This document shows positions 26,682 through 47,800 of a stretch of DNA of 47,800 nt, piece after piece. A program made the position numbers and the translations under genes. Below the pieces are notes generated by a model. The model made no database searches. It had not been told where the DNA came from and saw only the letters and a program-made list of their open reading frames with translations. How positions within the stretch are numbered: the stretch's first letter is position 1; each line of letters begins with the position of its first letter. Source of the DNA: a virus (Duplodnaviria > Heunggongvirae > Uroviricota > Caudoviricetes); IMG/VR virus record IMGVR_UViG_2563366820_000002, positions 1 through 47,800 of that record. The stretch is one strand, 5' to 3'.

Positions 26682-26703
26682 GCCGCTACTGCGGCTTTTT
26701 TAT
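26682..26703 (+). terminator. Intrinsic terminator-like hairpin inside the virion operon
   Basis: GCCGC-TACT-GCGGC followed by TTTTTTATT. Confidence 0.5.
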
Positions 26704-26724
26704 TGCCTGCCGAAAGGTAAAAGC

Positions 26725-27951: not shown

Positions 27952-27954
27952 GAA

Positions 27955-28434: not shown

Positions 28435-28437
28435 TAC

Positions 28438-29478
28438 ATGAATAACGCAGAATTTTTACAACATAAAGCTATGGCTGAGCGAGATTACGGTGTAATCCTT
28501 CCGGAAGCCAAAGCCTATCTGACGGATGCTGTTGCTAATAGCTATTCCTATGCAATGGACTCTCAGCCTTCACTGGTAACAACCAGCAACTCTGGCATTC
28601 CATGGTACTTCACTAATTACGTTGACCCGGAACTGATTCGCATCCTTGTCACTCCGATGAAAGCGGTGGAAATTCTGGGGGAAACGAAGAAGGGAGACTG
28701 GACCACCATGACCGCACAATTCCCGGTTGTGGAATCAACGGGTCAGGTTTCCAGTTATGGTGACTACAACAATAATGGGCAGGTAAATGCTAACGTCAAC
28801 TGGGTTGCTCGTGAGTCCTATCTGTACCAGACCATTACTCAGTGGGGTGAGCTGGAACTTGACCGTTACGGTGAAGGCCGCATTGCATGGGCTCAACAAC
28901 TGAATACGGCTTCTGCGCTGACCCTGAATAAGTTTCAGAACAAGTCCTACTTCTTCGGCGTTGCTGGCCTGAAGAACTACGGCATTCTGAATGACCCTAA
29001 CCTTCCGGCATCAATCACCCCGGGCGCAACGGGTACTGGCAGCGGAACTACCTGGGCAACCAAAGATGGTCAGGCGGTGTATGACGATATCCAGGCGCTT
29101 TACATGCAGTTAGTGAAGCAGACCAAGGGGTACGTTGAGCGAGACAGCAAGATGACGCTGACGATGAGTCCAGAGTCAGAAGCAAATCTGACCAAGACCA
29201 ACATGTACAACGTCAACGTGTCTGATCAGCTGAAGAAAAACTTCCCGAACCTGCGTGTTGTCACTGCTGTTGAGTACAAAACCGAATCCGGCGAACTGGT
29301 TCAGTTGATTGCCGACGATCTGGATGGTCAGGACACCGGCTACTGCGCATTTACCGAAAAAATGCGTGCACATCCGGTTGTGGTTGATCTGTCCGCGTAT
29401 AAACAAAAGAAAACAGGCGGCACCTGGGGCGCAATCATTCGCCAGCCGCTAGCATTTGCAAGCATGTTGGGGGTTTAA
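28438..29478 (+). CDS. Major capsid protein
   Basis: 346 aa, position and size in the head module. Confidence 0.7.
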
Positions 29479-29481
29479 TTC

Positions 29482-29829
29482 ATGGCAGAAATGGTAAGCG
29501 TTGGCTGCAAATTGCCAAATGGCCTTCAGGTCACTCTGGATGGAAAAACGGTAATTCTTAACGGGGCGGCAACAACTGCCCTCCGTGGTCTTGATGGTGC
29601 AATTCCTGAGGGGGCTTTCGGAGTTACCATGGTCGAGAAAGACTTCATGGATAAGTTCATCGAGACCTATAAGGATGCCGCGTATATTCAGAACAATGCA
29701 ATCTTCATTCAGAAAGATATTCGCAGTCTGAATGCGCAGGGTAAAGATCTGAAAGAATCAAAAACTGGCCTCGAAGGTCTTGACCCGGAAAATCCGGCTC
29801 CGGGCGTAAAAAAGGCTGACGAAAAATAG
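29482..29829 (+). CDS. Head-associated hypothetical protein, 115 aa
   Basis: ATG with coupling to the capsid gene. Confidence 0.55.
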   Translation: MAEMVSVGCKLPNGLQVTLDGKTVILNGAATTALRGLDGAIPEGAFGVTMVEKDFMDKFIETYKDAAYIQNNAIFIQKDIRSLNAQGKDLKESKTGLEGLDPENPAPGVKKADEK

Positions 29830-29841
29830 CGGGAGCAGCAA

Positions 29842-30273
29842 ATGGGCGTCGTAATATTTGACCCCTCCGCATTTAAGCTACGCTATCCTGAATTCTCATC
29901 TGTCGACGACGCACTTCTTCAGCAGTATTTCACGCAAGCAACCATTTATCTCGATAACACAGACTCAAGTCGTGTGTCGGATTTGGCTGTACGCTCAATG
30001 CTGCTGAATATGCTGGTTGCCCATATCGCCTGTTTGTATTCAGGAGCGAATGGGCAGTCTCCATCCGGATTGGTTGGAAGAATCGACAGTGCTTCAGAGG
30101 GTTCGGTTAGCGTTCATGCCGATATGCCAGGGGGAACAGCAAATTCAGCATGGTACATGCAAACAAAGTACGGGGCTGATTACTGGAATGCTACGGCGCC
30201 GTTTCGCACCTTCCAGTATATAAGCGGGCATTCTCCATCAAATTACCCGTATGGGTATTACCGGAGGTACTGA
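29842..30273 (+). CDS. Head-tail connector/completion-type protein, 143 aa
   Basis: Position between head and tail genes. Confidence 0.5.
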
Positions 30274-30839
30274 TGGATAAGGTGATGGAGTTCCTTGATT
30301 CAGTTGGTAGTGAGTTGTCCTCAAAGCAATTGAAGGTCGGGTTTCTTGAAGATGCCACCTATCCGGATGGTACTTCTATGCCAATGGTTGCAGCATCTAA
30401 CGAATTTGGTAACCCGGCAAGTGGAAGTCCGCCAAGGCCATTCTTCAGGAATGCTATAGCTTCTAAATCTGAAGAGTGGTCAGAAAAGGTCGAAAAGCTC
30501 ATGAAATCGCATGACGGAGATACGGATACTGTTCTGAATCTTATCGGCGAGATCATAAAAGCAGACATTCAGGAATCCATTCGAACTATTCAAGAGCCGC
30601 CATTAAGCCCGGTAACAGTACTTCTAAGAAGTCGATTCCCTAATAACAGGGCGGAAATGACTAAGTGGGATGTAGTGAAGGCCAGAGAAGATGTTTTTGG
30701 TGGTCCGGGCTATTTCGGTCCGGTGAAAAAGGTTGATGTTGATATGAGCAACAACAAGCCTCTCATATGGACCGAGGACATGTTAAGGGCTGTTGATTAT
30801 GAGGTAGGTGAAATTGAATCTTCGACAGATATCCAATAA
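30273..30839 (+). CDS. Virion structural protein, 188 aa (neck region)
   Basis: ATG overlapping the upstream stop. Confidence 0.5.
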   Translation: MDKVMEFLDSVGSELSSKQLKVGFLEDATYPDGTSMPMVAASNEFGNPASGSPPRPFFRNAIASKSEEWSEKVEKLMKSHDGDTDTVLNLIGEIIKADIQESIRTIQEPPLSPVTVLLRSRFPNNRAEMTKWDVVKAREDVFGGPGYFGPVKKVDVDMSNNKPLIWTEDMLRAVDYEVGEIESSTDIQ

Positions 30840-31185
30840 TGCGATCACAAGCATTAACCCCAACATCCCGGCAATCCTGAAAAAGTATGCAGGTGAAACT
30901 ATCGGCCCCGGTCGCAAGCCGATTCCGTCTTATCTCCCTGACCAGAACGTTACCATTCAACTACAGCCAATCAGTCGCGGCGACATGCAACACGTCGATG
31001 GATTGAATATTCAGGGGCTGGCAAAAGTGATTTACGTCAATGGTAATTACTTCAGTGTGCAGCGAGAACTGGAGCAGGGCGGAGATATCTTCGTGATTAA
31101 CGGGGAGCAATGGCTTGTTGTTGAGCCAATAGAATTGTGGCCTGACTGGTGCCGGCTGATTGCTGTATTGCAGGTAAGCCCATGA
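30808..31185 (+). CDS. Virion structural protein, 125 aa
   Basis: GTG start at 30808; exact start uncertain. Confidence 0.45.
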   Translation: MKLNLRQISNNAITSINPNIPAILKKYAGETIGPGRKPIPSYLPDQNVTIQLQPISRGDMQHVDGLNIQGLAKVIYVNGNYFSVQRELEQGGDIFVINGEQWLVVEPIELWPDWCRLIAVLQVSP

Positions 31186-31697
31186 ATGATTTCACTGTCG
31201 ATAATATTATCGATGTACTTGCTGGCTACATAGAACCTATCGCTGGTAAATGCCTGCAGGCTCAGGCTAACCGTGTACCAATGCCCAAAGATCAGTTCTG
31301 TATCCTGACCCCTTTGCGATTCACCAGACTATCCACTACGAGAGAGCTTAAACAAGATACCGGCTCTCCGGACACAAGCACCATGGGATATACGGAAGTT
31401 CGCCAGGCTGATATTCAGGTAGATATCTATGGTCAGGGGGCAGGGGATAGAGCTATTGCACTGGAAACAACATTCACCAGTGGATATGGCTACGACATCA
31501 TCAAGGCTATTGATGCACGGCTTGCGCCGCTTTACTCATCTCCTGCCATTCAGGCGCCGATGATCAACGCCGAGAGTCAGTGGCAGGAGCGTTACACGTT
31601 AACTCTTTCCCTGCAAGCACACATCACCGTGTCGTTCCAGCAGGACTATTTCGACAAAGCAGAAATTTCAACTGAACAGGTGGATAACCGCCCATGA
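31182..31697 (+). CDS. Virion structural protein, 171 aa
   Basis: ATG at 31182 overlapping the upstream stop (ATGA); track start 31149 is GTG. Confidence 0.5.
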   Translation: MNDFTVDNIIDVLAGYIEPIAGKCLQAQANRVPMPKDQFCILTPLRFTRLSTTRELKQDTGSPDTSTMGYTEVRQADIQVDIYGQGAGDRAIALETTFTSGYGYDIIKAIDARLAPLYSSPAIQAPMINAESQWQERYTLTLSLQAHITVSFQQDYFDKAEISTEQVDNRP

Positions 31698-33184
31698 GCA
31701 CAATCCCTTTATCTGTAGATTTTAATATCACGCCCAATGTCGTTACGCCTGCCGGTTCTGCGGTTGATGCTAACGGCCTGATGTTGACCGATAACGAGCT
31801 TATCCCGGTTGGCGCGGTACAATCTTATTACTCCTCATCTGATGTATCAGCTTTAATGGGGAGTGAATCGAAAGAATTCCTCGCCGCACAACAGTATTTT
31901 AACGGATACGAAAACTCATCCGTTATTCCTGGTGAACTGCTGATGTATCGTATTGTTACTTCACCAGTGGCTGGGTATCTTCTGTCCGGCAACCTGAAAG
32001 GTGTTACCCTGGCAACACTGAAAGCGATTCCAGCAGGAACAATCACCCTTTCCATTGACGGTGAGTCGACTACCAGCACATCAATTGATTTGTCCACAGC
32101 CACAAGTTTTAGTGATATTGCGTCCAAGTTGCAGGTTGGAATTGGTGCAAGCAAGGTGGTGGTTGAATGGTTGCCAATCGCTAACCGATTCATCATTCGC
32201 TCTGCCACTACTGGCGCAGAGAGTGAAGTGTCTTATGCTTCTGCTGGCGCTCTGGCTACCGGGTTGTTACTGACGCAGGATTCCGCAGCGATTGTATCAC
32301 CGGGTTCTGATGCGGTAACGCTGACAGACACGATGAACAACATCATCAACGTCAACCAGAACTGGATCCTGTTTAACTCGCTGGTCGAACTGACCGATGA
32401 CCAGAAAACAGAATTGTGCGCATGGGCAAGCAGCAGTAAAAACCGGTTTGGATATGTTGTTCACGACACCACTTCAGCAGGAACGGTAGCCAATAATGCA
32501 AATTGCTTTGTGCAGAAAGTGGTTGTGGCAAATGGCTACGAGAACATTTTTCCGGTGTACGGAACATACCTGTATAGCGTTACAGCACTGGCATATGCTG
32601 CATCCGTGGATTTTGCACGCACCAATGGGCGTATCTCGTTCAAGTTCCGTGGATTTTCAGGGTTAGCACCCAACGTAAGCGATCTGGCGACCGCTCAGGC
32701 ACTGAAGTCAAACGGTTACAACTTCTACGGCTCATACAGCCTGAACAAAACAATGGCGCAGTACGCATCTGATGGTGCCATTACTGGCAAGTTTGTATGG
32801 CTGGACAGTTTTATTAATCAGGCATGGATTAATGCCAATCTGGTTAGTGCTTTTGCCAACCTGTTCACCAATAATCAGTCTTACCCGTTCAATGAGACAG
32901 GATACGGCGCAGTTTCTGCTGCTGTTATTGATGTTGCTGAACAGGCTCTCAATTTCGGGGCTATTCAGCGTGGCGTGAAACTTGATAATGCGCAAACCAG
33001 AATTGTGAATAACACAGTTGGAAAAGATATCTCATCGACGCTGTATTCACAGGGCTGGTTCCTGTACATCCCGACACAGTCAGGCTCTGCACGCATTGAG
33101 CGCGACCTGAAAGGTGTCATTTTTTATTATGTCGATGGGCAACTTATTCAGTCCATCACAATGTCCTCAACCGCGATTTTATAA
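31694..33184 (+). CDS. Tail sheath-like protein
   Basis: 496 aa, first large gene of the tail module and immediately upstream of a tube-sized gene. Confidence 0.55.
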   Translation: MSTIPLSVDFNITPNVVTPAGSAVDANGLMLTDNELIPVGAVQSYYSSSDVSALMGSESKEFLAAQQYFNGYENSSVIPGELLMYRIVTSPVAGYLLSGNLKGVTLATLKAIPAGTITLSIDGESTTSTSIDLSTATSFSDIASKLQVGIGASKVVVEWLPIANRFIIRSATTGAESEVSYASAGALATGLLLTQDSAAIVSPGSDAVTLTDTMNNIINVNQNWILFNSLVELTDDQKTELCAWASSSKNRFGYVVHDTTSAGTVANNANCFVQKVVVANGYENIFPVYGTYLYSVTALAYAASVDFARTNGRISFKFRGFSGLAPNVSDLATAQALKSNGYNFYGSYSLNKTMAQYASDGAITGKFVWLDSFINQAWINANLVSAFANLFTNNQSYPFNETGYGAVSAAVIDVAEQALNFGAIQRGVKLDNAQTRIVNNTVGKDISSTLYSQGWFLYIPTQSGSARIERDLKGVIFYYVDGQLIQSITMSSTAIL

Positions 33185-33195
33185 GGGAATAAATC

Positions 33196-33630
33196 ATGCC
33201 TATCGATATTACCTCGGCAAACAGTAAGCTGCGAATCGTCGTACCCGCTTACTACCCTGGCGGTTTTGATGTTGACGACTACGCAGCTGATAACATGTTT
33301 GAAACTGGTGCGTTACAGAACAAAGAAGACATGATGTCAGCGGACGGTAAATACCATGCTGGTTTTATCTTTAACCCGACAGAGTTCACCATCAACCTGA
33401 TGCCCACATCCAATGCTGGCTCGCTGATTGATGACTGGTATGCAGCGGAGAGAACCGCAATTTCAGCGTTTCAGTGTAATGCGGTGCTTACAGTTCCGGC
33501 TCTCGGCGCGAAGTGGAATTTTGTGAACGGGGTTCTTTATACATGGACTCCAACCCCTCCGGGTCGGCGCGTACTGCAACCACGCCCGGCAGTATTTCAC
33601 TTTGAGTCTGTAACACGGAGCACTATCTGA
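33196..33630 (+). CDS. Tail tube-like protein
   Basis: 144 aa following the sheath-like gene. Confidence 0.5.
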   Translation: MPIDITSANSKLRIVVPAYYPGGFDVDDYAADNMFETGALQNKEDMMSADGKYHAGFIFNPTEFTINLMPTSNAGSLIDDWYAAERTAISAFQCNAVLTVPALGAKWNFVNGVLYTWTPTPPGRRVLQPRPAVFHFESVTRSTI

Positions 33631-34037
33631 TGGCACGTAAAGAAATCCCCTTTATCGTGGAAGACGATAATCGCGACAATGGGAAGGAGTTCATTATCAC
33701 AGAGATGTCGGCATGGGATGCCGACGAACTGGCACAGGATTTATTCCGCTCCATGGGGGAATCGGGATTCTCTGGCATTCCTGCTGATGTGATTGCCATG
33801 GGGTGTGCTGGCCTTGCCACCCTTGGTCTGAATGTTCTTTCTGCCGCATCGCCGGAAGTCGCCAGAAAACTTCGTGATCGCCTGATGTCAACTGTGCAAA
33901 TTGTGATTACACACGAAGGCAGCAGACAGGTGCGAACCGTGAAGCCTGTCGACTTTGAAGAGGTATCAACCATTCGTCAGGTAATGGATAAGGTATTTAA
34001 AGTTAATTTTGATTTTTTAACGATCGCCGGAGAGTGA
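33630..34037 (+). CDS. Tail assembly chaperone (zero-frame product)
   Basis: Acidic 135-aa protein immediately upstream of the tape measure gene; slippery heptamer near its 3' end. Confidence 0.7.
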   Translation: MARKEIPFIVEDDNRDNGKEFIITEMSAWDADELAQDLFRSMGESGFSGIPADVIAMGCAGLATLGLNVLSAASPEVARKLRDRLMSTVQIVITHEGSRQVRTVKPVDFEEVSTIRQVMDKVFKVNFDFLTIAGE

Positions 34038-34252
34038 AGTACCCGTTCATGGAAGAGGAGACTCTTCCGGCAAAACTCGTTCGCCCCGTAAACGTCACAC
34101 CATCAATGAACGCCATTATCTGTTCAGGAAAAGCCACTTATACCGATTTGCAGGAACGGTTATCTGTTCGTGATATGTATAACCTTCTGGAAATTATCTC
34201 GGTGGAATCATTTAACAAGCGGGTCTGGAATAAACATCAGGAGCAGCGATGA
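34013..34252 (+). other. Programmed -1 frameshift site and extension ORF of the tail assembly chaperone
   Basis: Zero-frame gaT TTT TTA at 34013-34019 is an X_XXY_YYZ slippery site; -1 frame stays open to 34252, overlapping the tape measure start. Confidence 0.65.
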
Positions 34253-36024
34253 TTATCAATGAGTTGGCCTACAAGGTCACAATTAAGGCCGATGAATTCC
34301 TGAATGGAAAACGGAAAGTAAAGCAGGAAGCACAAGACCTTAAAAACGAAATAGAGAGATCTTCATCTGCGATAGAAAGGTCAACAACCTCCTCAATGTC
34401 CAAAACGGCTAAGGAGACCGACAAAGCTGCTGTTGCAATGAAAGGGTTGACTGCTTCATTTAATGGATTTTTGGGGCTTTCGACACGCTTTGTGGCTGTT
34501 GGCGGTGTGTTGACAGCCGTAGCCATTGGCATTCACCGTGCATTTGAAAGTACTTCGGAGTCAATTGTAAGAGCCAGTAATATGGGGAGAATGCTTGGAA
34601 CAAGCGCCAGTAACGTTCTTGGTACTCAGTATGGATTCTCTCGAATTGGTCAGAACGGCGGCGCGTTCCTTGGGGCTCAGATGAGCGCCAGGATGGCGCT
34701 TTCCAATATAGAAGACCCAACAATTTTCGGCGGACTTACACCGGAGGCTCAGAATTTACTAACAACTGGAGCGAGAACAGGCATTGATATTAGTAAGCTT
34801 GGAGGTAAATCTGAAGATGCTCTGGCGGAATTTCAGAAATATGGGAAGAACCATAACGAGAAACAGTTAATGCAAGTGCTTTCTGCTTTTGGTTATGACC
34901 CTAATCTTGCCGGGGATATTAAAAGCGGAAAAGCTGTGCAGATGGTATCTGAGGAAGAGAAACGATGGCAGATGACCAAAGAGCAGGAAGAAGCACAGCG
35001 TAATATTCTTGCTACGACTAAAGCCCTTGACTCGCAATTTGCTCAGGTTAAACAAGAACTAATGGCTACATTTGGCCCTGAAGTGCTTAAAGCAGAACAG
35101 GAGTTTTTAGAGTGGCTGAAAAACAACAAGGGTGACATTGTTGGGTTCTTCAGGAACCTGAGTACAGGTATTGATGGTTTTGTTAAAGCCGTTGGTGGCG
35201 CTGGAAACGCATTGGGCATTCTTGCTGCCATGGCTCTTCTTAGCGGCAAGGGGTTAGGAAGCAAGCTGGGCTTAATCGGTACGATTGGTGTTTTGGGGCA
35301 GATGGTACAAGACCAGTATAAAGATGTTCCTGATGCACAAAGGCCTTGGTTTTTTCAGCAGCACTGGTTCGAAAGATTATTCAATATTGAATATGAAGAT
35401 CCAAATCAGGATATACCAACAAATCCATCAGGAAAAACAAGAGCGGATAGAAACTTCAACCCATTAAATCTTAGAACTAAAGGTAATGCAGGTAGGGATT
35501 CTGGAGGGTTTGCGAAGTACACTGATGATGAGTCAGGATGGGAAGCAGCAAGAAGGCAATTATCTCTGTATTACACAAGAGATAAACTTAACACTATAAA
35601 CGGTATTATTACGAAATGGGCTCCACCTTCAGAAAACGATACCGCCTCATACATAAAGCAAGTTTCTAAGGCAATGGGGGTTGATGCAAATGAAAAACTC
35701 GACCTTTCAGACCCGTCTGTTATGGCTAAATTAAGTTCCTACATGGCACGACATGAAGGTTATTCAAATTGGAAGCGGGGTCTTGATTATGGTAACCCAA
35801 CGAAAAATAGCAATGCCGCGTACTACCAAACCCAGCAAAGATTGGCTAATGGATCTGCAAACCAATCCTATGCCCAGAGCGTTGTTAACAATTACAACAG
35901 CCAGCACATAGGAGAGGTAAAGGTAATTGCCAAAACGGATCAATCCTCAAAACTAACAGAAGGATTTAAGGAGTTGAATCGCAGATCATCAGTAAACCAG
36001 GCATTTTCAAGTGGTGTTAGATAG
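34249..36024 (+). CDS. Tail tape measure protein
   Basis: 591 aa, Gly/Ala-rich with a hydrophobic segment, follows the frameshifted chaperone pair. Confidence 0.7.
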   Translation: MIINELAYKVTIKADEFLNGKRKVKQEAQDLKNEIERSSSAIERSTTSSMSKTAKETDKAAVAMKGLTASFNGFLGLSTRFVAVGGVLTAVAIGIHRAFESTSESIVRASNMGRMLGTSASNVLGTQYGFSRIGQNGGAFLGAQMSARMALSNIEDPTIFGGLTPEAQNLLTTGARTGIDISKLGGKSEDALAEFQKYGKNHNEKQLMQVLSAFGYDPNLAGDIKSGKAVQMVSEEEKRWQMTKEQEEAQRNILATTKALDSQFAQVKQELMATFGPEVLKAEQEFLEWLKNNKGDIVGFFRNLSTGIDGFVKAVGGAGNALGILAAMALLSGKGLGSKLGLIGTIGVLGQMVQDQYKDVPDAQRPWFFQQHWFERLFNIEYEDPNQDIPTNPSGKTRADRNFNPLNLRTKGNAGRDSGGFAKYTDDESGWEAARRQLSLYYTRDKLNTINGIITKWAPPSENDTASYIKQVSKAMGVDANEKLDLSDPSVMAKLSSYMARHEGYSNWKRGLDYGNPTKNSNAAYYQTQQRLANGSANQSYAQSVVNNYNSQHIGEVKVIAKTDQSSKLTEGFKELNRRSSVNQAFSSGVR

Positions 36025-36483
36025 TTAAAAGTTGCGATGGGATGGCGAAGCAATGGCAAAACCTCCAAGTGTTACCATTTCATCTCTAAAAGCCTTATCT
36101 TTAGCTGCTTTTTGTGCACCTGACATGATGTTCTTGTGAAAATAGTCTCTGAACTTGGCCTCTTCCTCGGATACATCTGGAGTAAAACGACCATAGTCAG
36201 ATTCAATCTTATCTAAAATTATGCTTGCAGTATTGGGCTTGAAGATTGAGTATGACAAAAAAACTCGACAATCATTCGCTTGTTCCATGACGAATTTTTT
36301 CATGTCATCAGGGTTAAATCTTCTTGATTCAGAAGCGTATTTTTGAGCCAACCCAATGCAAGCAATCTCAGCTTCCTTGGTGACATGATCTGGTGGAATA
36401 AGTCCTTCTTCTCCATGCGCCGAAGCTAAGAATAGCCAAGAGGAGATAATAGGAATGGCATAACGAATATATGATTTCTTCAT
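36025..36483 (-). CDS. Secreted/periplasmic protein with signal peptide, 152 aa
   Basis: N-terminal MKKSYIRYAIPIISSWLFLASAHG signal-like sequence; co-oriented with the upstream repressor gene. Confidence 0.65.
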   Translation of the reverse strand: MKKSYIRYAIPIISSWLFLASAHGEEGLIPPDHVTKEAEIACIGLAQKYASESRRFNPDDMKKFVMEQANDCRVFLSYSIFKPNTASIILDKIESDYGRFTPDVSEEEAKFRDYFHKNIMSGAQKAAKDKAFRDEMVTLGGFAIASPSHRNF

Positions 36484-36619
36484 ATTATAATCCTTGTGCT
36501 GTTTTTATGATTCTACCCATTAAATGAAGAAAAAACACGCAACACTCAGTTTTGTCCAGGATAGCATGTGACTCAAGGGAGCGCAGCCTACCTGGGTTGG
36601 TTAAGTGATTTCGTGCTTA

Positions 36620-37480
36620 TTACTTGTCTGGTGAGTGTTTATAACGGGCCTGTGAAAGGCTGTAGTTAGCTAACTTCTCAAGGCGCTCAGCAATTTCATC
36701 TAGTCGCTTAAGACGTTCGTCAAAGGGTGTATTCTTGTCAAATTTTGTATTTGACCAAAAATCTTGGCTAACCTTGTGTGCTTCCTCAACCAGTTTCTCT
36801 ACTTCGCTATGCGGCATTGGAGAGATAAGTTTTTCCCTCTTGATTCGAAACTGAGAATGAATAGCCACGCCAACAACCTCGATAAAATCAGGTTGGAACA
36901 TGGGGTATAAAGGGTTAAGTGACTTAAGGTAGATTTGGCGCTGATCCAGTATAAACTGCTTAAATACAGCCTCAGAATTATCATTTAGCACACACATCAC
37001 AAAGTCACCAGAAACAGCCTTTAGCGATGAATCGAAAGTTACGATTGTTCCAGGGGGAAAGCTAATCCCATCACCGGAAGACATGGATTCACCTTGTATT
37101 TCAACGGCAAAACAGTATTCATTGGCTTCAGGAGGGGCTGGAATAAAGTCCTTTATAGCAGCAGTCTTTAGTAAATCATCTAGCGATTCAAATCTTGCCT
37201 GTACGTGTGTTAGCACAGGAATCTCGCGCACAGTAACAGTTCTCTTGACACTGCTAACGTCAGGGCCATCTCCTTTCCCTTGCGTAAGCCATTCAGTGGT
37301 AGTTCCCAATGCAGCTGCAAGGTTTTGAAGTGCCTTTTCTCTTGGTTTAGCTTCCCCACCCTCGTAAGCAGCGATCTGTCTGGGTACCACGCCTACTTTC
37401 TTGGCAAGCTCGGATTGAGTCAAACCGATGGAGTTGCGCGCTATGGCAACTCGTTTAGAAAAAGAATCATCAAAACTCAT
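36620..37480 (-). CDS. LexA/CI-type repressor: HTH-XRE plus S24 autopeptidase domain with a ~70-aa C-terminal extension
   Basis: N-terminal IGLTQSELAKKVGVVPRQIAAYEGG helix-turn-helix; GESM serine motif and FKQF lysine motif; 286 aa. Confidence 0.8.
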   Translation of the reverse strand: MSFDDSFSKRVAIARNSIGLTQSELAKKVGVVPRQIAAYEGGEAKPREKALQNLAAALGTTTEWLTQGKGDGPDVSSVKRTVTVREIPVLTHVQARFESLDDLLKTAAIKDFIPAPPEANEYCFAVEIQGESMSSGDGISFPPGTIVTFDSSLKAVSGDFVMCVLNDNSEAVFKQFILDQRQIYLKSLNPLYPMFQPDFIEVVGVAIHSQFRIKREKLISPMPHSEVEKLVEEAHKVSQDFWSNTKFDKNTPFDERLKRLDEIAERLEKLANYSLSQARYKHSPDK

Positions 37481-37577
37481 ATTTGCACCTTAAAAAATCA
37501 TTGACTCAATATATGTCTGGTACTAACCTAATGTTGAAGATTGAGTAATTGAATAACAAAACTACATGAGGTGAATA

Positions 37578-37751
37578 ATGGAACAGAAGAAAAAAGATAT
37601 CAAGCCTATCTCCTACCGCCCAAGTGCTGAGGTGCGTGAGTTTTTGGAAGGCAACGCAGCTAAAAGCTACCGCTCAATTCAGGGAATGCTTGATTTCTTT
37701 ATGGCAAGAGTGATGGAGATGGAGAGGAAAGGTGAAATTGTCATTCATTAA
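37578..37751 (+). CDS. Small regulator, 57 aa, possible ribbon-helix-helix (Arc/Mnt-like)
   Basis: ATG with GAGGTG RBS, divergent from the repressor; an RHH fold is an inference from the pattern. Confidence 0.5.
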   Translation: MEQKKKDIKPISYRPSAEVREFLEGNAAKSYRSIQGMLDFFMARVMEMERKGEIVIH

Positions 37752-37823
37752 AAACGTTGAAGCCCAACGGTGGCTAGACCGTCTGGGCTTCGGTATCAAC
37801 AAATCGGCTTAGGAAATATTGAC

Positions 37824-38702
37824 ATGAAAAGTATAGCAAAGATACAAAACGATTTCACCATCTTCAAATTCGGCGACAGTGAAATCCGCGTCATCAACAA
37901 GTGCGGTGAGCCGTGGTTTGTAGCTAAAGATGTTTGTGATGCTTTAGCTTTGACTAACTCACGCAAGGCGCTTACTGCACTTGATGACGATGAAAAGGGA
38001 GTAACTTTAAGTTACACCCTTGGTGGTGAGCAGAATTTAAGCATTGTGAGCGAATCAGGTATGTATACATTGGTTTTGCGCTGCCGCGATGCCGTCAATA
38101 AAGGTTCAGTCCCGCACAAATTCCGCAAGTGGGTAACAGCAGAAGTTCTGCCTTCAATTCGCAAATATGGCGAGTATGTGAAAGGCAAGAAAACCACAGT
38201 TGAGGAAAGAACACCGCTACGCGATGCAGTAAACATGCTGGTAGGAAAGAAAGGACTTCGCTATGACGATGCATACAATATGGTTCATCAGCGTTTTGGT
38301 ATTGACAGCATTGATGAACTTTCAATTGAACAAATCCCGCTGGCCGTAGAGTACATCCACAGGGTGGTGCTTGAAGGTGAGTTCATTGGCAAGCAAGAGA
38401 AGAAAGCAAACGAGCTTTCTGCAAAAGAAGCAAACAGCCTTGTATGGTTATGGGATTATGCCAACCGCTCACAGGCATTATTCCGCGAACTGTATCCGGC
38501 ATTAAAACAAATTCAATCGAACTATTCCGGCAGATGCTACGACTACGGCCATGAGTTCTCGTATGTTATCGGAACGGCGAGAGACGTTTTAATCAACCAC
38601 ACACGAGATGTTGATATCAATGAGCCAGACGGACCAACAAATCTTTCTGCATGGATAAGGCTTAAGAATAAAGAATTGCCGCCTTCTGTTCATCTGTATT
38701 AA
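37824..38702 (+). CDS. Bro-N domain antirepressor-like protein
   Basis: N-terminus [43 protein letters not shown] typical of Bro-N; ATG at 37824 with AGGAAA RBS. Confidence 0.75.
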
Positions 38703-38718
38703 TGACGCATCTGGTGGT

Positions 38719-38748
38719 GAAAAAAAACCGCCAGTGTGCTGCTGGCGG
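38719..38748 (-). terminator. Hairpin with a flanking A-run (terminator geometry on the minus strand)
   Basis: CCGCCAG-TGTGCTG-CTGGCGG preceded on the plus strand by AAAAAAAA. Confidence 0.4.
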
Positions 38749-38786
38749 CCTATGTCACACCCTTACTACCACATAAGGAATGCCTA

Positions 38787-39515
38787 ATGACTTTTAAGAA
38801 TGTAGCAAACATCGGATCCGTTGTCACGGATAAAACCATTGATAGCCAGTACCTGTTAGAGATGGTCAATCATGCTCGTAGACAGTGCGGGGAAAAAGAA
38901 GTTCGAAATAACGACTTTATTGCACGCATTAAGGATGAACTTGAAGGTGAGCACTACGAAATTTTCGTAGTTCAAAAATCAAACAAGACAACTTCTGAAA
39001 AAGTTGTTATGTCAATTAAGCAAGCCCTTCGAGTGGCTGCTCGTGAATCTAAAGCTGTTCGCCGCTCACTTGTAGACCAACTTGAAAGTATGCAAGAAGC
39101 GCACATTAAAAGCGGTAAATCGTCGAGTGGACTTGTTGAGTATCGCCAGGCGCGAACATTGAAAATGACGGTTGAAGCTGTTACCAATCTGTTCGATTTG
39201 ATGCCAAATCTTGCGCCGGAAGCAAAGCAGACTGCGGCCGCAAGCATAATCAACCCGATCGTTGGTTTTAATGCAATACCCCTTCCGGCAATAGAAGAGC
39301 ATTACTACTCAGCAGGGGAGGTTGCAGAGCAGCTTGGAGTAACGGCCAACAAGATTGGTCGCATTGCTAACGCAAACAACCTCAAAACTGAGCAGTACGG
39401 GAAGTTCTTCCTGGATAAATCGGCGCATTCCAGCAAACAGGTGGAAGCATTCCGCTACAACTCAAAAGGAGTTGAAGTATTGAGAAATCTAGTTAATGTT
39501 TCTACCGCAGCCTAA
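38787..39515 (+). CDS. Antirepressor-like protein (Rha/Ant-type N-terminus, KilAC-type C-terminus)
   Basis: 242 aa from ATG 38787 with AAGGAA RBS; C-terminal YYSAGEVAEQLGVTANKIGRIANANNL resembles antirepressor C-terminal domains. Confidence 0.6.
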   Translation: MTFKNVANIGSVVTDKTIDSQYLLEMVNHARRQCGEKEVRNNDFIARIKDELEGEHYEIFVVQKSNKTTSEKVVMSIKQALRVAARESKAVRRSLVDQLESMQEAHIKSGKSSSGLVEYRQARTLKMTVEAVTNLFDLMPNLAPEAKQTAAASIINPIVGFNAIPLPAIEEHYYSAGEVAEQLGVTANKIGRIANANNLKTEQYGKFFLDKSAHSSKQVEAFRYNSKGVEVLRNLVNVSTAA

Positions 39516-39537
39516 TTAAATCTTTTTATAAAAACCA

Positions 39538-39562
39538 ACCCAGCTTCGGCTGGGTTTTTGTT
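39538..39562 (+). terminator. Intrinsic terminator closing the inserted island
   Basis: ACCCAGC-TTCG-GCTGGGT followed by TTTTTGTTT. Confidence 0.75.
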
Positions 39563-39575
39563 TAATGGAGAGTAG

Positions 39576-40391
39576 ATGGGCATAATCGATTTAAACACAG
39601 CAGACATATTCAATGCTATCGGTGGTGGCTCTCCGCTTTCGATCATCGACAGCGTTCTGCATCCTCAGTATGTGATTCGTGACAGGGAAACTGGCGAGGT
39701 TGCTCTTGAGTTCAGTGGTATGGCATCCGTACAGCCAAGTGGAAGGGCGCAAATAACAAACGCCCCGGTGGAGAAAGGGAAATACCAGTCCATCAACAAA
39801 GTTAAAGAACCCGCCAGAGTAAGATGTGCAATCATCGTAAATGGTCTTACTGGTTTTTCCGGCAATATCCCGAATATTTTCGATCTCACATTCACAAGCC
39901 AGAACAGCACGCTGAACACAATCAAAACGATGCTGTCCTCTGCAAAAACATACGATATTGAAACGCCAAAGGAAACTCTGGAGAGTTTCGACCTTGTTGA
40001 CCACTATTACGAAGTTAACTCTCAAAAGGGGGTGACTCTTCTGACGGTTTATCTTGATTTTCAGGAGGTCATTCAGCAAATGGAGGTTATCCTCTCTGGA
40101 TCTCAGTCAGAACAGAAGCCAACGGATAACAATAAGTCACAGGGAGATGTAGGAGTTGATCCGCAAATAACCAATGGCGGAGCCAGGGAATCTACTGTCG
40201 ATGAGCTAAGTAAATCATGGTCATCACTGAAGTCATCTGTTGGAGAAATCACTGGAAAAATCTCCGACACAATCAAGACTGAATTCCAGAGTGCTCTTGA
40301 TACGGTATCCAAACCAATACTCGAAGTCACAAACAGCGCAACAAAAAAAGCGGCAGATATTGCAAAAAATATAGTTAAGGCGAGTACATGA
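39576..40391 (+). CDS. Baseplate-associated protein, 271 aa
   Basis: First gene after the island; GGAG RBS. Confidence 0.5.
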   Translation: MGIIDLNTADIFNAIGGGSPLSIIDSVLHPQYVIRDRETGEVALEFSGMASVQPSGRAQITNAPVEKGKYQSINKVKEPARVRCAIIVNGLTGFSGNIPNIFDLTFTSQNSTLNTIKTMLSSAKTYDIETPKETLESFDLVDHYYEVNSQKGVTLLTVYLDFQEVIQQMEVILSGSQSEQKPTDNNKSQGDVGVDPQITNGGARESTVDELSKSWSSLKSSVGEITGKISDTIKTEFQSALDTVSKPILEVTNSATKKAADIAKNIVKAST

Positions 40392-40690
40392 TTACAGTAT
40401 CTGTTCTTCCCAGCAAATCTCAGTCCATTTCGGTAAGTCTGGCTGGTCAGCAATGTAATATAAAACTTGTTCAGCGACAGAGTTTTATGTACATGGATTT
40501 AACTGTTAATGGAGTCCCAATTATGCAGGGCGTTCCATGTCTGCATGGGAATAAGATGGTAAGATATTCCTACCTTGGATTTAAGGGAGACCTTATTTTC
40601 ATTGATAATGATGGGGAATCGGACCCGCGATGGGAAGGCTTGGGTAGCCGTTACTTGCTGTATTACATCGAGGAAAACGAGCTTGTATAA
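40388..40690 (+). CDS. Baseplate-associated small protein, 100 aa
   Basis: ATG overlapping the upstream stop. Confidence 0.5.
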   Translation: MITVSVLPSKSQSISVSLAGQQCNIKLVQRQSFMYMDLTVNGVPIMQGVPCLHGNKMVRYSYLGFKGDLIFIDNDGESDPRWEGLGSRYLLYYIEENELV

Positions 40691-41564
40691 AAATCACAGT
40701 CTTCGGTTTGACTTCACGAATGAATCATCAGCATTTGATAAAAATGGAAACAATAAAATCTCCATCAGAAATGTTAAGTCAACAGTATCCCTGAACTTTG
40801 TTACCGGTCGGGGAGGTGCTCAGGCTGATATATCTCTTTACGGGTTAGGAATCGAAAGACTTGCTGATATATCAGGGAAGGCTGATGGTATTGTTGGGGA
40901 AGGTCAGAAGTTAAATGTTGAGGTATTTGCTGATGATTCTCTTGTTTTCTCCGGCACGATGCTTTCATCAATAGCAAACATGAATTCTGCTCCTGAAAGC
41001 AGTCTGATGATAACAGCCTCTTCTAATGTTGATTTACAGAACATGCCAGCAAGCCCGTTTACAGCGCAGGGGGCGCAAAGTGTTGAAGATGTCATCTCAT
41101 CCATTTGTGCAAGTGCAGGTTATGAAGCTGTGTTTAATAATGTAAAAGGGATGACAACATCAGGAAGTCCGCATTTTGAAGGAAGTGTTTTTGAGCAACT
41201 TTATAGGGTCTGTTCAGATTATGGACTGGCGATGTCAGCTACGCCACCGACAAAAGTAGAGTTCTGGCCTTCAGAAAAAAACAGAGACGATGTAATTCCG
41301 TTTATATCCAGAGAATACGGACTTGTTGGATATCCTGTATTTTCAAATGGGGGACTGATGTTTCAGACGCAATATTCATCTCTCCTTTGCATTGGAAGAT
41401 ATGTGGATATCAAAACAGAACTACCACATGCAAGCGGAAGGTATAAGTTAACCTCCGTTCGGCATGAATTATCATCATGGATGCCAAATGGTTCATGGCA
41501 CTCAATATGTATTGCCGCCAGAACAGCGGAACAAAGAACAGAGGCGCAACAGAATAATGGATAA
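40683..41564 (+). CDS. Baseplate hub-like protein
   Basis: Track ORF 40575-41564 overlaps the upstream gene; a TTG at 40683 with GAGGAA RBS is the most plausible start (alternative ATG at 40608). Confidence 0.45.
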   Translation: MYKNHSLRFDFTNESSAFDKNGNNKISIRNVKSTVSLNFVTGRGGAQADISLYGLGIERLADISGKADGIVGEGQKLNVEVFADDSLVFSGTMLSSIANMNSAPESSLMITASSNVDLQNMPASPFTAQGAQSVEDVISSICASAGYEAVFNNVKGMTTSGSPHFEGSVFEQLYRVCSDYGLAMSATPPTKVEFWPSEKNRDDVIPFISREYGLVGYPVFSNGGLMFQTQYSSLLCIGRYVDIKTELPHASGRYKLTSVRHELSSWMPNGSWHSICIAARTAEQRTEAQQNNG

Positions 41565-42249
41565 GCAACTATTTACTCCAACGCCTGCTCAGGTAAGTGA
41601 GGCTCAATCTCAGGAATATATTTTTGAGATGCTGATGTCTGGATATTTCTTCATTGAGTTAGCGAGAGTTAAGGAAGTCAGGGGTGAGGCACCAGATTTA
41701 GTTGTTGATGCTCTTCCTTTGCTTACCAGAACAGACCGTACAGGAAAAATGATTTCTAACTCGGTTTTATATGATCTCCCCGTATGGCGGTTGCAGAGAG
41801 GAAACAGCGCTATAATTATGGACCCTGTGGCGGGTGATATTGGTCTGATTGCGGTATGCGACAAAGACACATCACTGGTAAGAAAAAATCGTAAAGAATC
41901 AGTACCTGGAAGCAAAAGGCGACACAGTAAATCTGATGCAATTTATCTTGGTGGGGTATTAAATATTGCACCTACTCAATTCATTGAATTTGCTGATGGT
42001 GCAATAAACATAACCACGCCTAATCCACTAAATATTAAATGTTCATCGTTAAATATTGATGCTCCTGATGGAGTCAACATGAATACTCCTTTACTTAAAG
42101 TAAGCGGTGATATTCAGGATAACGCAAGTTCACAGTCATCTACTGTTAAAAATTTAAGGGTCAACTATAACAATCACAAACATCCTGTTTCAGGTGTACA
42201 AAGTGGTGGGGCAACAATAAATTCCAATGCAACGGATAAACCGACATGA
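41557..42249 (+). CDS. Baseplate spike/assembly protein V-like
   Basis: ATG at 41557 (MDKQLFTPTPAQV...) overlapping the upstream stop. Confidence 0.5.
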   Translation: MDKQLFTPTPAQVSEAQSQEYIFEMLMSGYFFIELARVKEVRGEAPDLVVDALPLLTRTDRTGKMISNSVLYDLPVWRLQRGNSAIIMDPVAGDIGLIAVCDKDTSLVRKNRKESVPGSKRRHSKSDAIYLGGVLNIAPTQFIEFADGAINITTPNPLNIKCSSLNIDAPDGVNMNTPLLKVSGDIQDNASSQSSTVKNLRVNYNNHKHPVSGVQSGGATINSNATDKPT

Positions 42250-42605
42250 CATACAGAACTATGCAACTGGACACATCTACGTGGGACTTGACGCTTGACG
42301 GAAATGGCAATCTGGCGATCGCAGAAGAATCATATTCTGTTGCTCAGGATGTCGCCAGTGCATGCCTGGTGTTTTCAGGAGAGTGTTATTACGACAATAC
42401 ACTTGGGATCCCATGGAAGACAGAAGTTCTTGGCAGGCGACCATCTCCTGGTTTTATTGCTCAGAAAATGCAGGCTGAAGCACTCAAATTACCCGTTGTT
42501 GAGGATGCTCTGGCATCAGTTTTCTTTGACAAGAATACACGCACAACTCGCGGCACAATCCGCGTTACAGATATCAATGGTAATATTGCACAGGCCACCT
42601 TATGA
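42246..42605 (+). CDS. Baseplate wedge protein (gpW/gp25-like)
   Basis: 119 aa immediately upstream of the J-like gene; ATGA overlap. Confidence 0.5.
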   Translation: MTYRTMQLDTSTWDLTLDGNGNLAIAEESYSVAQDVASACLVFSGECYYDNTLGIPWKTEVLGRRPSPGFIAQKMQAEALKLPVVEDALASVFFDKNTRTTRGTIRVTDINGNIAQATL

Positions 42606-43831
42606 CGATATTAAATACGGCTGTTCCTGATGTAACCATCACTGAAAACGGTCTTTCAGTTCCCGACATAGCGGATGTTCTGGCGGGAAGACTTACAGAC
42701 ATGTCAACGGCTCTTGGTGGTGGTGCAAGTCAATCACTGAGTTCACCGCAAGGGCAGATCGCACAGTCTGATACTGAAATTATCGCTCAGGAATACGACA
42801 AGCTTCTTTGTTTGTTTAATCAAATTAATCCTGACTTTTCAACTGGCAGATTCCAGGACGGGATTGGCCGGATTTACTTTATGGAACGGATCGCTGCACA
42901 GGGGACCGTTGTTACAGCGACATGCATTGGTCAGGTTGGAACCACCATACCTGCGGGTAGTACTGCTGTTGATGCGAGTGGATATATATATCAGTCAATT
43001 GACAATGCCGTAATACCCTCATCAGGCTCTGTTGATGTGCAGTTTGTCAACACAACAACCGGGCCAATTCCGTGTGCAGCCGGCTCCCTGAATCAGATTT
43101 ATCGAGCCGTTTCCGGATGGGATGCTGTAAATAATATTAGCCCTGGGGTCGTTGGTGTTGATGTTGAATCACGGATCGCCTTTGAAACTCGCCGGAGGCA
43201 ATCAGTTGCCAGAAACAGCAGAAATCAGGATGCGTCTACATTAGCTGCGTTACTTGCGACAGATGGTGTGCTTGATGCTTACGTATGGTCAAACAGAACT
43301 GCAGAAACAGTAAATAAAGGAACAACGAATTTCCCGATTCTTGCGCATTCTGTTTATATTTGTGTTTATGGCGGGGCTGATACTGATGTTGCTGAGTCAA
43401 TATTCAATACTTATAACCCCGGCGCCAATATGAATGGTGATACAACGTTCACTGTTTACGATAACGTTAATTACATGCCGCCATATCCATCTTACGTAAT
43501 GCAATGGCAAAAGGCATCACCTACGCGGGTTTACTTTAAGGTAAATGTCGATGCTTCACTAAATCCCCCAAGTGATATTACTAAACAAGTAAAGGAAATG
43601 ATTGTCACTGTGTTCAATGGAGGGTATGAGGGTATTGGAAAGGCACGAATTGGTTCTACTATAAATGCTGGTAAATACTATGCCCCTGTTATTTCAATAT
43701 CTCCTGATACAGTTGGCATTTTGTCTCTTGAAGTTTCTCTCGATGGTTCACTATACGGACCTGCTGTAACTATGGGCATAGACCAGGTTCCAACTATTCA
43801 GGAATCAGATATCATTGTTACATTATCGTAG
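42602..43831 (+). CDS. Baseplate J-like protein
   Basis: 409 aa in the baseplate cluster. Confidence 0.65.
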   Translation: MTILNTAVPDVTITENGLSVPDIADVLAGRLTDMSTALGGGASQSLSSPQGQIAQSDTEIIAQEYDKLLCLFNQINPDFSTGRFQDGIGRIYFMERIAAQGTVVTATCIGQVGTTIPAGSTAVDASGYIYQSIDNAVIPSSGSVDVQFVNTTTGPIPCAAGSLNQIYRAVSGWDAVNNISPGVVGVDVESRIAFETRRRQSVARNSRNQDASTLAALLATDGVLDAYVWSNRTAETVNKGTTNFPILAHSVYICVYGGADTDVAESIFNTYNPGANMNGDTTFTVYDNVNYMPPYPSYVMQWQKASPTRVYFKVNVDASLNPPSDITKQVKEMIVTVFNGGYEGIGKARIGSTINAGKYYAPVISISPDTVGILSLEVSLDGSLYGPAVTMGIDQVPTIQESDIIVTLS

Positions 43832-43841
43832 GGGGAGCTGT

Positions 43842-44480
43842 ATGTGGGAAGACACAATTCTTACCCAATACTCGGCAAGTAAAAAATTATTGTCCATCAT
43901 AGACACATTTAACCAGGCAGTGAGCCTTGATGATTTCACTGAGGAATTCATTAAAAAGGTATGGGATTTAACTACCTGCGAAACATTCGGGCTTGATATG
44001 TGGGGGGGAATTGTTGGCATAAGCAGATATATTGTTGCGCCAATAGATAGCGATTCATTTGGATTTAGCGAAGCAGATGATGGGAGTACTGATTACCCGG
44101 CACCATTTAATAATTCTCCGTTTTACGGCGGCATTCAGGAAACAACGAATGTCAGGCTTGGGGATGATGCTTACAGAACATTAATACTCTGCAAGGCTTT
44201 TACTAACATCAGTGTGGCAACCATTCCTGATATAAATAAATTTCTAAAAATACTTTTTTATCAAAGAGGGAGAGCATATTGCGTAAATTATCGAGATATG
44301 ACAATAGGAATAACGTTTGAATTTGAGCTTGCGCCATACGAAGAATCTATTCTCACGAATTATGAGGTAATGCCCGTTCCGAGTGGTGTTCTGGTAAATA
44401 TACGTAAAATCATTAGCCCTTATTTTGGTTTTGCATCTGATGCCTATCCGTTTAATGATGGCACATTTTATAGGAATTAA
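43842..44480 (+). CDS. Baseplate/tail protein I-like
   Basis: ATG at 43842 with GGGGGAG RBS. Confidence 0.5.
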   Translation: MWEDTILTQYSASKKLLSIIDTFNQAVSLDDFTEEFIKKVWDLTTCETFGLDMWGGIVGISRYIVAPIDSDSFGFSEADDGSTDYPAPFNNSPFYGGIQETTNVRLGDDAYRTLILCKAFTNISVATIPDINKFLKILFYQRGRAYCVNYRDMTIGITFEFELAPYEESILTNYEVMPVPSGVLVNIRKIISPYFGFASDAYPFNDGTFYRN

Positions 44481-45973: not shown

Positions 45974-46993
45974 ATGCAACATTCATTAGCAATGAAAAAC
46001 TGCGCAGGTAGTCATGAAATGAGAAAAATAAGTAATGTAATTTTTGATAGAGATCACACCATTGAACTAAAAGGCGTTGCTATTCTCCTTGTCATGCTTG
46101 GGCATGTAAATGTAATCCCGCACGCCGGGGCATATGGTGTTGCTCTATTCCTTATGCTGTCAGGCTTTGGCCTTGTGCAATCTTACATTAAATCAGGGTT
46201 GGATTCTTTTTTTTCAAAAAGGCTATCAAAAGTACTTGTTCCATACGCTATTATAACCATTGTTTGGATTATTGCTTTTGGACATCCAGCAATTACAAAT
46301 GATGACTTTTATCATTTAGCGATTACCATACTAGGCATTGATTTGAATGCCACTATAGATCCTAGTATGTGGTATATATCTTTTATAATAATATGGTATC
46401 TGGCTTTTTTTCTAATTTTTAGCGCTAATATCTCTATTAATATTAAAATAGCCTTCCTTTTCCTTTTTTCTGTATTGCTTTACAAAAACGCAGATATATT
46501 CCCTCCTCCAGCAGGTGCCGGACTATACGTTGCTGCATTTCCACTAGGTTCACTAATTGGAGTGGTGTATGAAAAAGTCAAAGGATATGCAATAGATAAA
46601 TGGATATTACTTTTGTTTGTCATAGTTTCTTTGGTGTCCTTAATTTTATCCCTTTATTTTTATAAAGGGATTGATGTTAGTTTTTTTGACTATGCAGCAA
46701 CAAATATAGCAAGCGCATTTCTTATAATTGGAATTACATCGATTCTTAGAGTTGCAAATATAAACATAACACCATTGAAATTTGTTGGCATACTATCTTA
46801 CGAGATGTATCTTATAGAATTCATGTTTTTGATGAAAGCATACCATTTATTATCGTTTATAAGTTCAGATGGGATAAAATCCGTCTTGTTTGTTGTAATT
46901 GTTTGTATTTTTGCATACGTATATAAATACGTACTTTCAATAGTTTTTAAAGCGCTCAGGAAGGCATTACCAAACTCAAAAATATATACTTAG
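45974..46993 (+). CDS. Acyltransferase-3 family integral membrane protein (putative surface-polysaccharide O-acetylase)
   Basis: Multi-pass hydrophobic protein with N-terminal ...RDHTIELKGVAILLVMLGH... motif; start among ATGs at 45974/45992/46019 uncertain. Confidence 0.75.
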   Translation: MQHSLAMKNCAGSHEMRKISNVIFDRDHTIELKGVAILLVMLGHVNVIPHAGAYGVALFLMLSGFGLVQSYIKSGLDSFFSKRLSKVLVPYAIITIVWIIAFGHPAITNDDFYHLAITILGIDLNATIDPSMWYISFIIIWYLAFFLIFSANISINIKIAFLFLFSVLLYKNADIFPPPAGAGLYVAAFPLGSLIGVVYEKVKGYAIDKWILLLFVIVSLVSLILSLYFYKGIDVSFFDYAATNIASAFLIIGITSILRVANINITPLKFVGILSYEMYLIEFMFLMKAYHLLSFISSDGIKSVLFVVIVCIFAYVYKYVLSIVFKALRKALPNSKIYT

Positions 46994-47371
46994 GTAGATC
47001 TATATATAGATAATGTCTACATACGGAGCAGGCTATCGTTGGATATTATGCTGGTAGCCTGTATCAATTCTACAACTCTACATGGCGAACTATCCTTAGC
47101 CAGGGATGTCATACGCATAGCGGATTATTCAAACACATCCTTAAGCACTCATGGCAGACCTTCTTTATCATCTTGTACTTGCACTGTTTCATGAATTTCA
47201 TTCATAGGAATTAACTTAACCTTTGCACCCAGAATGATTAGGAGGACACGTTTTGTTAGCTCATTAAAACCTAAGGTTTTTTCTGGTAAACCTGCAAAGG
47301 GTCTCATGATATAGACCGGTTCAGCAAAGATTCTTATCCTATTCCTTTGCTGATTTGATATAGAGCATTTA

Positions 47372-47391
47372 TACTGTGATTTTATCCAGTA
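47372..47391 (+). promoter_or_regulatory. SOS (LexA) box upstream of the UmuD'-like gene
   Basis: TACTGTGATTTTATCCAGTA: left half-site matches CTGT, right half-site CCAG deviates by one base from ACAG. Confidence 0.55.
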
Positions 47392-47410
47392 TTGATGACT
47401 GAGGTGCATC

Positions 47411-47800
47411 ATGGGATTCCCGAGTCCGGCTGCAGACTACGTTGAGCAACGCATATCGCTCGACGAGACGTTAATCAGCAAACCATCGGCAACGTACTTC
47501 ATGCGGTCAGGGAAAACGTACTGGCGAGAAGGCATCATGTACGGTGCTTTGCTCGTCGTTGACAGTTCACTGATGCCGTTTGATGGCTCGTTGCTGATTT
47601 GTTCAGTTGACAATGAGTTCAGAGTGAAGCGATACAAGCGCTCCCCTAAACCACATCTGATTAATCTTGAGACTGGAGCGGTAGAGGTGATACCAAAGCC
47701 GACCAGCCTGTTTGATGATGAGTCGCATTTTTTTGGGGTGATTACGTACATCATCAATGATGCGCGTTCCGGTGAGTTTGATGATTGCTCTGTGATGTAG
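47411..47800 (+). CDS. UmuD'-like protein (pre-truncated UmuD homologue, HumD-like)
   Basis: Begins MGFPSPAADYVEQRI, aligning to UmuD from the Cys24-Gly25 cleavage site onward; GAGGTG RBS; stop at the window end. Confidence 0.8.
   Translation: MGFPSPAADYVEQRISLDETLISKPSATYFMRSGKTYWREGIMYGALLVVDSSLMPFDGSLLICSVDNEFRVKRYKRSPKPHLINLETGAVEVIPKPTSLFDDESHFFGVITYIINDARSGEFDDCSVM

Follow-up and report, generated by a model that had tools for sequence, protein, structure and literature searches.

The last gene of the window, the whole 47,800-nt stretch of DNA analysed here, is very probably a prophage-borne humD, a gene for a UmuD homologue that is made directly as UmuD' under LexA control and serves the host pol V. 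An earlier note on this DNA had described a pre-truncated UmuD' analogue like P1 humD behind an SOS box, and the family models and the homologues agree with that description. The HumD family has been known since 1999 and has a curated model; the window gene is of a known kind, with nothing new beyond small details at the family level.

Membership in the HumD family

We compared the translated gene with family models and with annotated phages. The NCBIfam equivalog model for HumD (NF051876) matched at 212.8 bits against a cut-off of 120, with residues 1-129 on model positions 1-129, and the model for the autoproteolytic UmuD (NF007621) gave 86 bits, below its cut-off of 110, which leaves the protein outside that family. 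The Pfam S24 model (PF00717) was matched at 31.8 bits against a cut-off of 23.3, indicating an S24 fold, and the PHROGs match was phrog_811, 'UmuD-like' (1.3e-45). A tblastn search against annotated phages found matches in 81 records, the best being N15 gp26, P1 and P7 HumD, phiKO2 gp23, HK639, HK140 and D6, with 61-65% identity over mostly all 129 residues. P1 HumD, about 61% identical to the window allele, is the only experimentally characterised protein of the family; the P1 record annotates humD with the words 'functionally complements E. coli UmuD''. It has been described as an already activated, shorter UmuD carried by P1 (PMC7092418), and humD as a LexA-regulated SOS gene (PMC9603915).

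Public records already contain the identical protein, A311_01379 of E. coli KTE146 (contig KB733122.1, assembly GCA_000352685.1), labelled 'hypothetical protein' in GenBank and 'HumD family' in UniRef. The allele is rare, with three member sequences on two or three contigs. Relatives of 85-95% identity are full length in other Escherichia and Citrobacter genomes, the exceptions being one of 147 aa (P0005), probably with a miscalled start, and one of 109 aa (P0006), the sole short one. At the nucleotide level relatives were few: megablast of 47100-47800 against the phage collection gave zero matches, and the best relative, in one E. coli P22-like prophage, matched at 85%.

The family tallies come from an alignment of UmuD with the 120 best homologue clusters. 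The protein starts with MGFPSP in 110 of these clusters, the remaining ones looking like miscalled longer starts, and with MGFP[SN]P in all 80 of 80 viral relatives. The family sample is shallow (62-94% pairwise identity), and 50 of the 129 columns are near-invariant. Two residues set the window allele apart from nearly all family members: Ser instead of Ala at residue 33 (FMRS for FMRA) and Ser instead of Pro at residue 127 (DDCSVM for DDCPVM).

Start codon and alignment to UmuD

The humD ORF runs from its ATG at 47411 to a TAG at 47798-47800, the final bases of the window, and is full length and free of frameshifts or internal stops. The coordinates of this and the other features are listed in Table 1. 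We searched for an in-frame start further upstream and found none, the in-frame TGA intervening. Because this TGA shuts the humD frame, neither a longer, cleavable UmuD nor any other N-terminal extension is possible, and the full-length cleavable form was ruled out.

Table 1. Positions of humD, its control elements and other features in the window
Feature	Position	Strand	Remark
ybhC	1..1284	-	host gene, pectinesterase family
attL core GCTTTTTTATACTAA	1331-1345		with lambda-like P' arm
Lambda-type integrase	1419..2489	-	
cI-like S24 repressor	11666..12382	-	
cII-like gene	12705..13085		
LexA-like site TACTGGATCAATCCACAGGA	13092-13111		one mismatch to TACTG-N10-CAGTA
Replication O gene	13118..		
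Second HTH + S24 (LexA/cI-like) gene with antirepressor gene	36620..38702	- (S24 gene)	S24 gene of 286 aa
Bro-N/P22_AR_C antirepressor gene	37770..38702	+	
Acyltransferase-3 family gene (PF01757)	45974..46993	+	between tail-fibre assembly gene and dinI remnant
Decayed divergent dinI-like gene	47104..47331	-	from tblastn and synteny with L089 and L125; probable pseudogene
Candidate sigma-70 promoter	47347..47375	+	-35 TTGCTG 47347-47352, 17-nt spacer, -10 TATACT 47370-47375; assigned by eye
Degenerate distal LexA box TGCTGATTTGATATAGAGCA	47348..47367	.	GAG in place of CAG in one arm; 4 nt before proximal box
Proximal LexA (SOS) box TACTGTGATTTTATCCAGTA	47372..47391	.	19 nt before humD ATG; predicted LexA binding
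In-frame TGA	47396-47398	+	five codons 5' of humD ATG; ORF finder starts the ORF at 47411
Shine-Dalgarno GAGGTG	47401-47406	+	4 nt before humD ATG; kept as GAGGTG or GAGG in relatives
humD	47411..47800	+	complete 129-aa HumD-family gene, UmuD'-like, pre-truncated; last gene of window

HMMER comparison with solved structures aligned HumD residues 2-118 with UmuD' (1UMU, 1umu_A; E 1.9e-21), residue 2 falling on residue 1 of UmuD'. In full-length UmuD (8GMT chain B), residue 2 was aligned with residue 25 (Gly25), so that Met1-Gly2 lie opposite UmuD 24-25. Counted from Gly25, the identity with E. coli UmuD was 43%. The alignment and the upstream stop agree with the earlier proposal that the protein starts at the equivalent of Gly25, already in the UmuD' form. 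Given this identity to the solved UmuD' structures, the fold can be regarded as fixed.

In the same alignment, SGKTYW of HumD lies opposite SGDSMI of UmuD, with Ser60 replaced by Thr36, Met61 by Tyr37, and one residue deleted just before the motif. GDSM thus becomes GKTY, which bears out the suggested replacement of the G-x-S-M serine motif; the catalytic-lysine region, said to be retained, was found as FRVKRY opposite FTVKKL, with Lys97 kept as Lys73. Across the 120 clusters, Thr stands at the Ser60 position in 80 and Ser in 36, so that 116 have a hydroxyl residue there; the other four have Ala (3) or Met (1). Lys97 is retained in 118, and Lys73 is among the near-invariant columns; the Met61 position has His or Tyr instead. 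We rejected the GKTY motif as a peculiarity of the window gene, since Thr is the majority state in the family. Of the features of an active S24 peptidase, the window protein has the general-base Lys; it lacks the Ser nucleophile in G-x-S-M and has no Ala-Gly or Cys-Gly scissile bond of its own, beginning with Met-Gly and having nothing in frame upstream. These residues mark window HumD as a predicted non-self-cleaving member of the S24 fold. Retention of the hydroxyl-Lys pair in the family is a weak sign of constraint; because the family sample is shallow, this conservation by itself carries little weight.

LexA box upstream of humD

The SOS-like box noted earlier at about 20 nt upstream was located as TACTGTGATTTTATCCAGTA, 19 nt from the ATG. 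It is the sole exact TACTG-N10-CAGTA in the 47.8 kb (0.01 expected; seen in 1 of 100 shuffles) and the top-scoring LexA-like 20-mer of the window on either strand. For the LexA matrix, we used 39 distinct operators that precede umuD in chromosomal umuD-umuC loci. The heterology-type score of the box was 10.6, within the range of the training operators, and that of the E. coli uvrB operator was 10.7. In 61 of 80 IMG/VR viral loci, a CTG-N10-CAG lies within 60 nt of the humD ATG, the commonest gap being 17-19 nt. P1 humD likewise has an annotated LexA site that ends 19 nt before the ATG, and boxes in N15, HK639 and the E. coli P22-like prophage align with that of the window. The LexA operator just 5' of the gene that marks SOS regulation in the family is thus present at the sequence level. 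The box had also been called degenerate; its AT-rich spacer is indeed off consensus, but both palindromic arms are perfect and the score is like that of the uvrB operator. Because the operator spacer is non-consensus, repression of humD may be leaky.

A subgroup of the viral loci (e.g. L099, L103 and L107) has no proximal box, and humD there lies downstream of another ORF, as in HK140. In the whole window, CTG-N10-CAG occurs 20 times against 11.7 +/- 2.9 expected, a mild excess that no shuffle reached, and none of the sites other than the humD box has LexA-like flanks or an AT-rich spacer. The site TACTGGATCAATCCACAGGA is found within the 32 nt that separate the cII-like gene from the replication O gene. 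It ranked fourth on the LexA matrix, with a score of 18.1, far worse than that of the humD box, and is probably due to chance.

Distal box and remnant of a divergent dinI-like gene

The candidate humD promoter agrees with the consensus at 8 of 12 positions, and its -10 element overlaps the proximal box; a promoter scan upstream of humD reported nothing at its threshold. The distal box TGCTGATTTGATATAGAGCA aligns with the intact distal box TACTGGTTGGATATACAGTA of three relatives (L089, L095 and L125), which carry two tandem boxes with the same 4-nt gap; in L095 the proximal box has a CAG-to-AAG change. The HI-like score of TGCTGATTTGATATAGAGCA was 22.2, outside the range of the training operators. 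Judged by these alignments, the truly degenerate element is the distal box, not the proximal one.

The divergent gene in L089 and L125 is of the DinI family (79-80 aa; PF06183 at 78.5 and 65.2 bits). The remnant at the same position in the window aligned with these genes by tblastn over 79 residues at 38% identity (E 3e-9, local search), with ATC in place of the ATG start (47331-47329) and two in-frame stops. The antisense ORF over the remnant (47149..47412, minus strand) encodes about 86-87 aa, is called 'hypothetical' in the source genome, and had no match in Pfam and NCBIfam searches. Among the 80 viral humD loci, 28 carry a divergent dinI-like gene, 15 of them at 78-93 nt from the humD ATG (79 nt in the window), 7 carry P1-type lxr instead, and 45 have neither upstream. 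On this evidence, the locus reads as what is left of a divergent dinI-humD cassette under LexA control: humD survives, and the dinI half and its operator have decayed.

Prophage edge downstream of humD

The earlier note had left open whether a umuC/polV-like partner follows humD and proposed sequence past 47800 as the check. In the source genome, the humD stop is followed by about 300 bp like the P arm of lambda attP, then the att core, ybhB, bioA, bioBFCD and uvrB. The attR core CTTTTTTATACTAA lies at L002 10692-10705, equal to window position 48102 if the window were extended, about 300 nt past its end. A umuC beyond the window end was rejected, since attR and the host genes ybhB and bioA come next. 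The large window ORFs contain no Y-family polymerase (IMS) domain. In 47 viral loci, at least 1300 nt of sequence follow humD, and none of these loci has a same-strand ORF of at least 150 aa after the gene. A ~420-aa ORF does follow in almost all of the chromosomal umuD-type loci identified by the same procedure, which makes this absence test for umuC valid. The window gene is an orphan without a cognate umuC, as the humD family is defined.

The other end of the window holds ybhC, the attL core, which matches that of attR, and the integrase gene (Table 1). The window consists of host ybhC and a prophage integrated at att-lambda, with humD as its last gene, and each end of the window falls on the end of a gene, as it would in a provirus call. 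Among the viral humD contigs (IMG/VR L089-L167), 15 of 80 end exactly at the humD stop, like the window, and 22 of 80 end within 350 nt. The gene adjoins int or attP also in HK639, HK140 and its nearest relative in E. coli (85% identity). Integrated prophages very often have humD as their final gene.

Other features of the prophage

The phage is a mosaic. Its early region is of lambda type (int/att, cII, O, DnaC-like), and 22790..44480 holds a T4-type large terminase, a DUF3383 sheath-like protein, Baseplate_J and other myovirus-type tail genes. When the right half of the window was compared by megablast, nothing beyond short mosaic patches matched catalogued phages, so no catalogued phage corresponds to it as a whole. 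Scans of the window with Rfam models and for tRNA genes gave no hits. The acyltransferase-3 gene lies in a stretch of 33% GC against ~46% for the rest and looks like an O-antigen-modifying (serotype-conversion) moron; an acyltransferase adjoins humD also in the E. coli P22-like prophage (L001). The second S24 gene and the neighbouring antirepressor gene stand amid tail and baseplate genes, separate from the cI-like S24 repressor, and may form an immunity/antirepressor module like immI of P22.

Proposed mechanism and alternative explanations

In the lysogen, host LexA would sit on 47372-47391, overlapping the likely -10 element, and humD would be off. DNA damage would activate RecA, LexA would cleave itself, and humD would be transcribed. 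The 129-aa product has no N-terminal arm and no Cys/Ala-Gly site, and because it lacks them, RecA-mediated self-cleavage would be unneeded. HumD would dimerise like UmuD'2 and join host UmuC and RecA-ATP in a pol V-type translesion enzyme, bypassing the slow step of activation from UmuD to UmuD'. The earlier term 'constitutively active' suits this cofactor in that no RecA-mediated cleavage is needed, but transcription is predicted to be LexA-repressed, and the presence of the protein would not be constitutive. In E. coli KTE146, humD occupies, as an accessory 'moron', the attR end of the lambda-Int prophage inserted at att-lambda.

LexA binding, induction by damage and partnership with host UmuC are extrapolated from published work on P1 HumD. 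Replacement of UmuD' (dimer formation, binding to UmuC and to the RecA filament, SOS mutagenesis) is known for P1 HumD, and the window allele would share it by likeness. P1 HumD is reported to form dimers, to bind both UmuC and RecA filaments, and to restore mutagenesis. It is also said to be poorly expressed and to complement well only from a high-copy plasmid, so that the physiological contribution may be small.

We think it unlikely that HumD mainly modulates RecA filaments or the SOS response for the benefit of the phage, instead of serving mutagenesis, and so tunes prophage induction. On that reading, HumD may bind RecA*, alone or with UmuC, and thereby dampen its activity in recombination or as a co-protease. 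RecA filaments are an established target of both UmuD'2C and DinI. The divergent dinI-like gene that shares the LexA operator region in 28 of 80 loci, in phiKO2 and in HK140, and as a remnant in the window, speaks for such a role, as does the LexA-like S24-type cI repressor of the prophage with its RecA*-dependent cleavage; the role would also fit an ancestral pairing with DinI, another RecA-filament binder. However, dinI is dead in the window and humD, being intact, has persisted without it; both dinI and lxr are missing upstream in 45 of 80 loci; and the sole experimental record of the family is that of P1 HumD complementing UmuD' in mutagenesis. We give still less credence to HumD as an enzyme whose Thr36/Lys73 pair would cut the UmuD of the host, or some other LexA-like protein, in trans and thereby hasten the activation of host pol V. 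The counts of 116 and 118 of 120 clusters for the hydroxyl residue and the Lys, with Lys73 near-invariant, point that way, and intermolecular cleavage is said to occur among UmuD-like proteins. Against this, Met61 is replaced by His or Tyr, one residue is deleted by the motif, the family is too shallow for conservation to weigh much, HK639 has Met at the Lys position, and Thr is not known as a nucleophile in S24 peptidases.

A wider form of the same idea, in which HumD proteins act in trans as proteases on host UmuD or a LexA-like repressor at RecA filaments and an ancestral dinI-humD cassette rewires SOS timing for the phage, seems to us very improbable too. If it were true, trans action would explain why the family retains the dyad with nothing of its own to cleave. 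Least of all do we expect humD to be a silent relic at the prophage edge, on the same path of decay as its dinI neighbour. The degenerate state of that neighbour and of the distal operator, the weak match of the promoter to the consensus and the rarity of the allele would all suit a relic; yet the ORF is full length and scores 212.8 bits over 129 positions, the Shine-Dalgarno sequence and the perfect-arm operator are retained, and relatives at 85-95% identity stay full length.

On the preferred reading, that of a LexA-controlled UmuD' substitute for host pol V, temperate enterobacterial phages carry, at the edge of the prophage, a damage-inducible accessory gene for a pol V cofactor that is made ready-activated. 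Such a gene could modestly raise the damage tolerance and mutability of the lysogen. Close relatives bear the wrong label, either 'LexA family transcriptional regulator' or 'S24 family peptidase'; the right name is HumD. The family tallies may help annotators: Thr for Ser in about two-thirds of clusters, an operator 17-19 nt from the ATG, no umuC after humD, often a divergent dinI, and often the last place in the prophage. Beyond annotation, the gene has little import.

Comparison with known systems

P1 HumD (P1 gp103) has 129 aa like the window protein, starts with MGFPSPAADYVE at the equivalent of UmuD Gly25, and is 61% identical to it. Both proteins match NF051876, share a C-terminal INDARSGEFDDC tail that is absent from UmuD, and have no cognate umuC. 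P1 HumD keeps Ser at the Ser60 position (ADSHH), whereas the window protein has Thr (GKTYW). The surroundings also differ: P1, a plasmid prophage, has the divergent LexA-controlled neighbour lxr and downstream phd-doc, and the window, an integrated lambda-Int prophage, has a dead dinI-like gene and attR.

N15 gp26, phiKO2 gp23 and the proteins of HK639 and HK140 are 62-64% identical to the window protein and equal to it in length, with the same truncation and with Thr at the Ser60 position. Their genes lie after tail-fibre genes and beside attP/int or partition genes. phiKO2 has an annotated LexA site, and phiKO2 and HK140 have an annotated divergent dinI-humD cassette of the same kind. HK639, unlike the window, lacks the Lys (FRIMRY). 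These four are siphoviruses or linear plasmid prophages, whereas the window phage has a sheath and baseplate, a myovirus-type tail module.

E. coli UmuD/UmuD' (PDB 1UMU, 1I4V, 8GMT) belongs to the same S24 fold family, with 43% identity over UmuD 25-136, GFPSPAADYVEQRI identical and Lys97 kept. In contrast to E. coli UmuD, window HumD lacks the 24-residue N-terminal arm and the Cys24-Gly25 site, has a C-terminal extension of about 10 residues, and is not in an operon with umuC. MucA, ImpA, RumA and SamA of plasmids and ICEs are, like humD, mobile-element-borne, SOS-regulated accessory subunits of pol V type (PMC7092418, PMC11541004). They are full length, need cleavage and stand in an operon with their own UmuC homologue, whereas humD is pre-truncated and an orphan.
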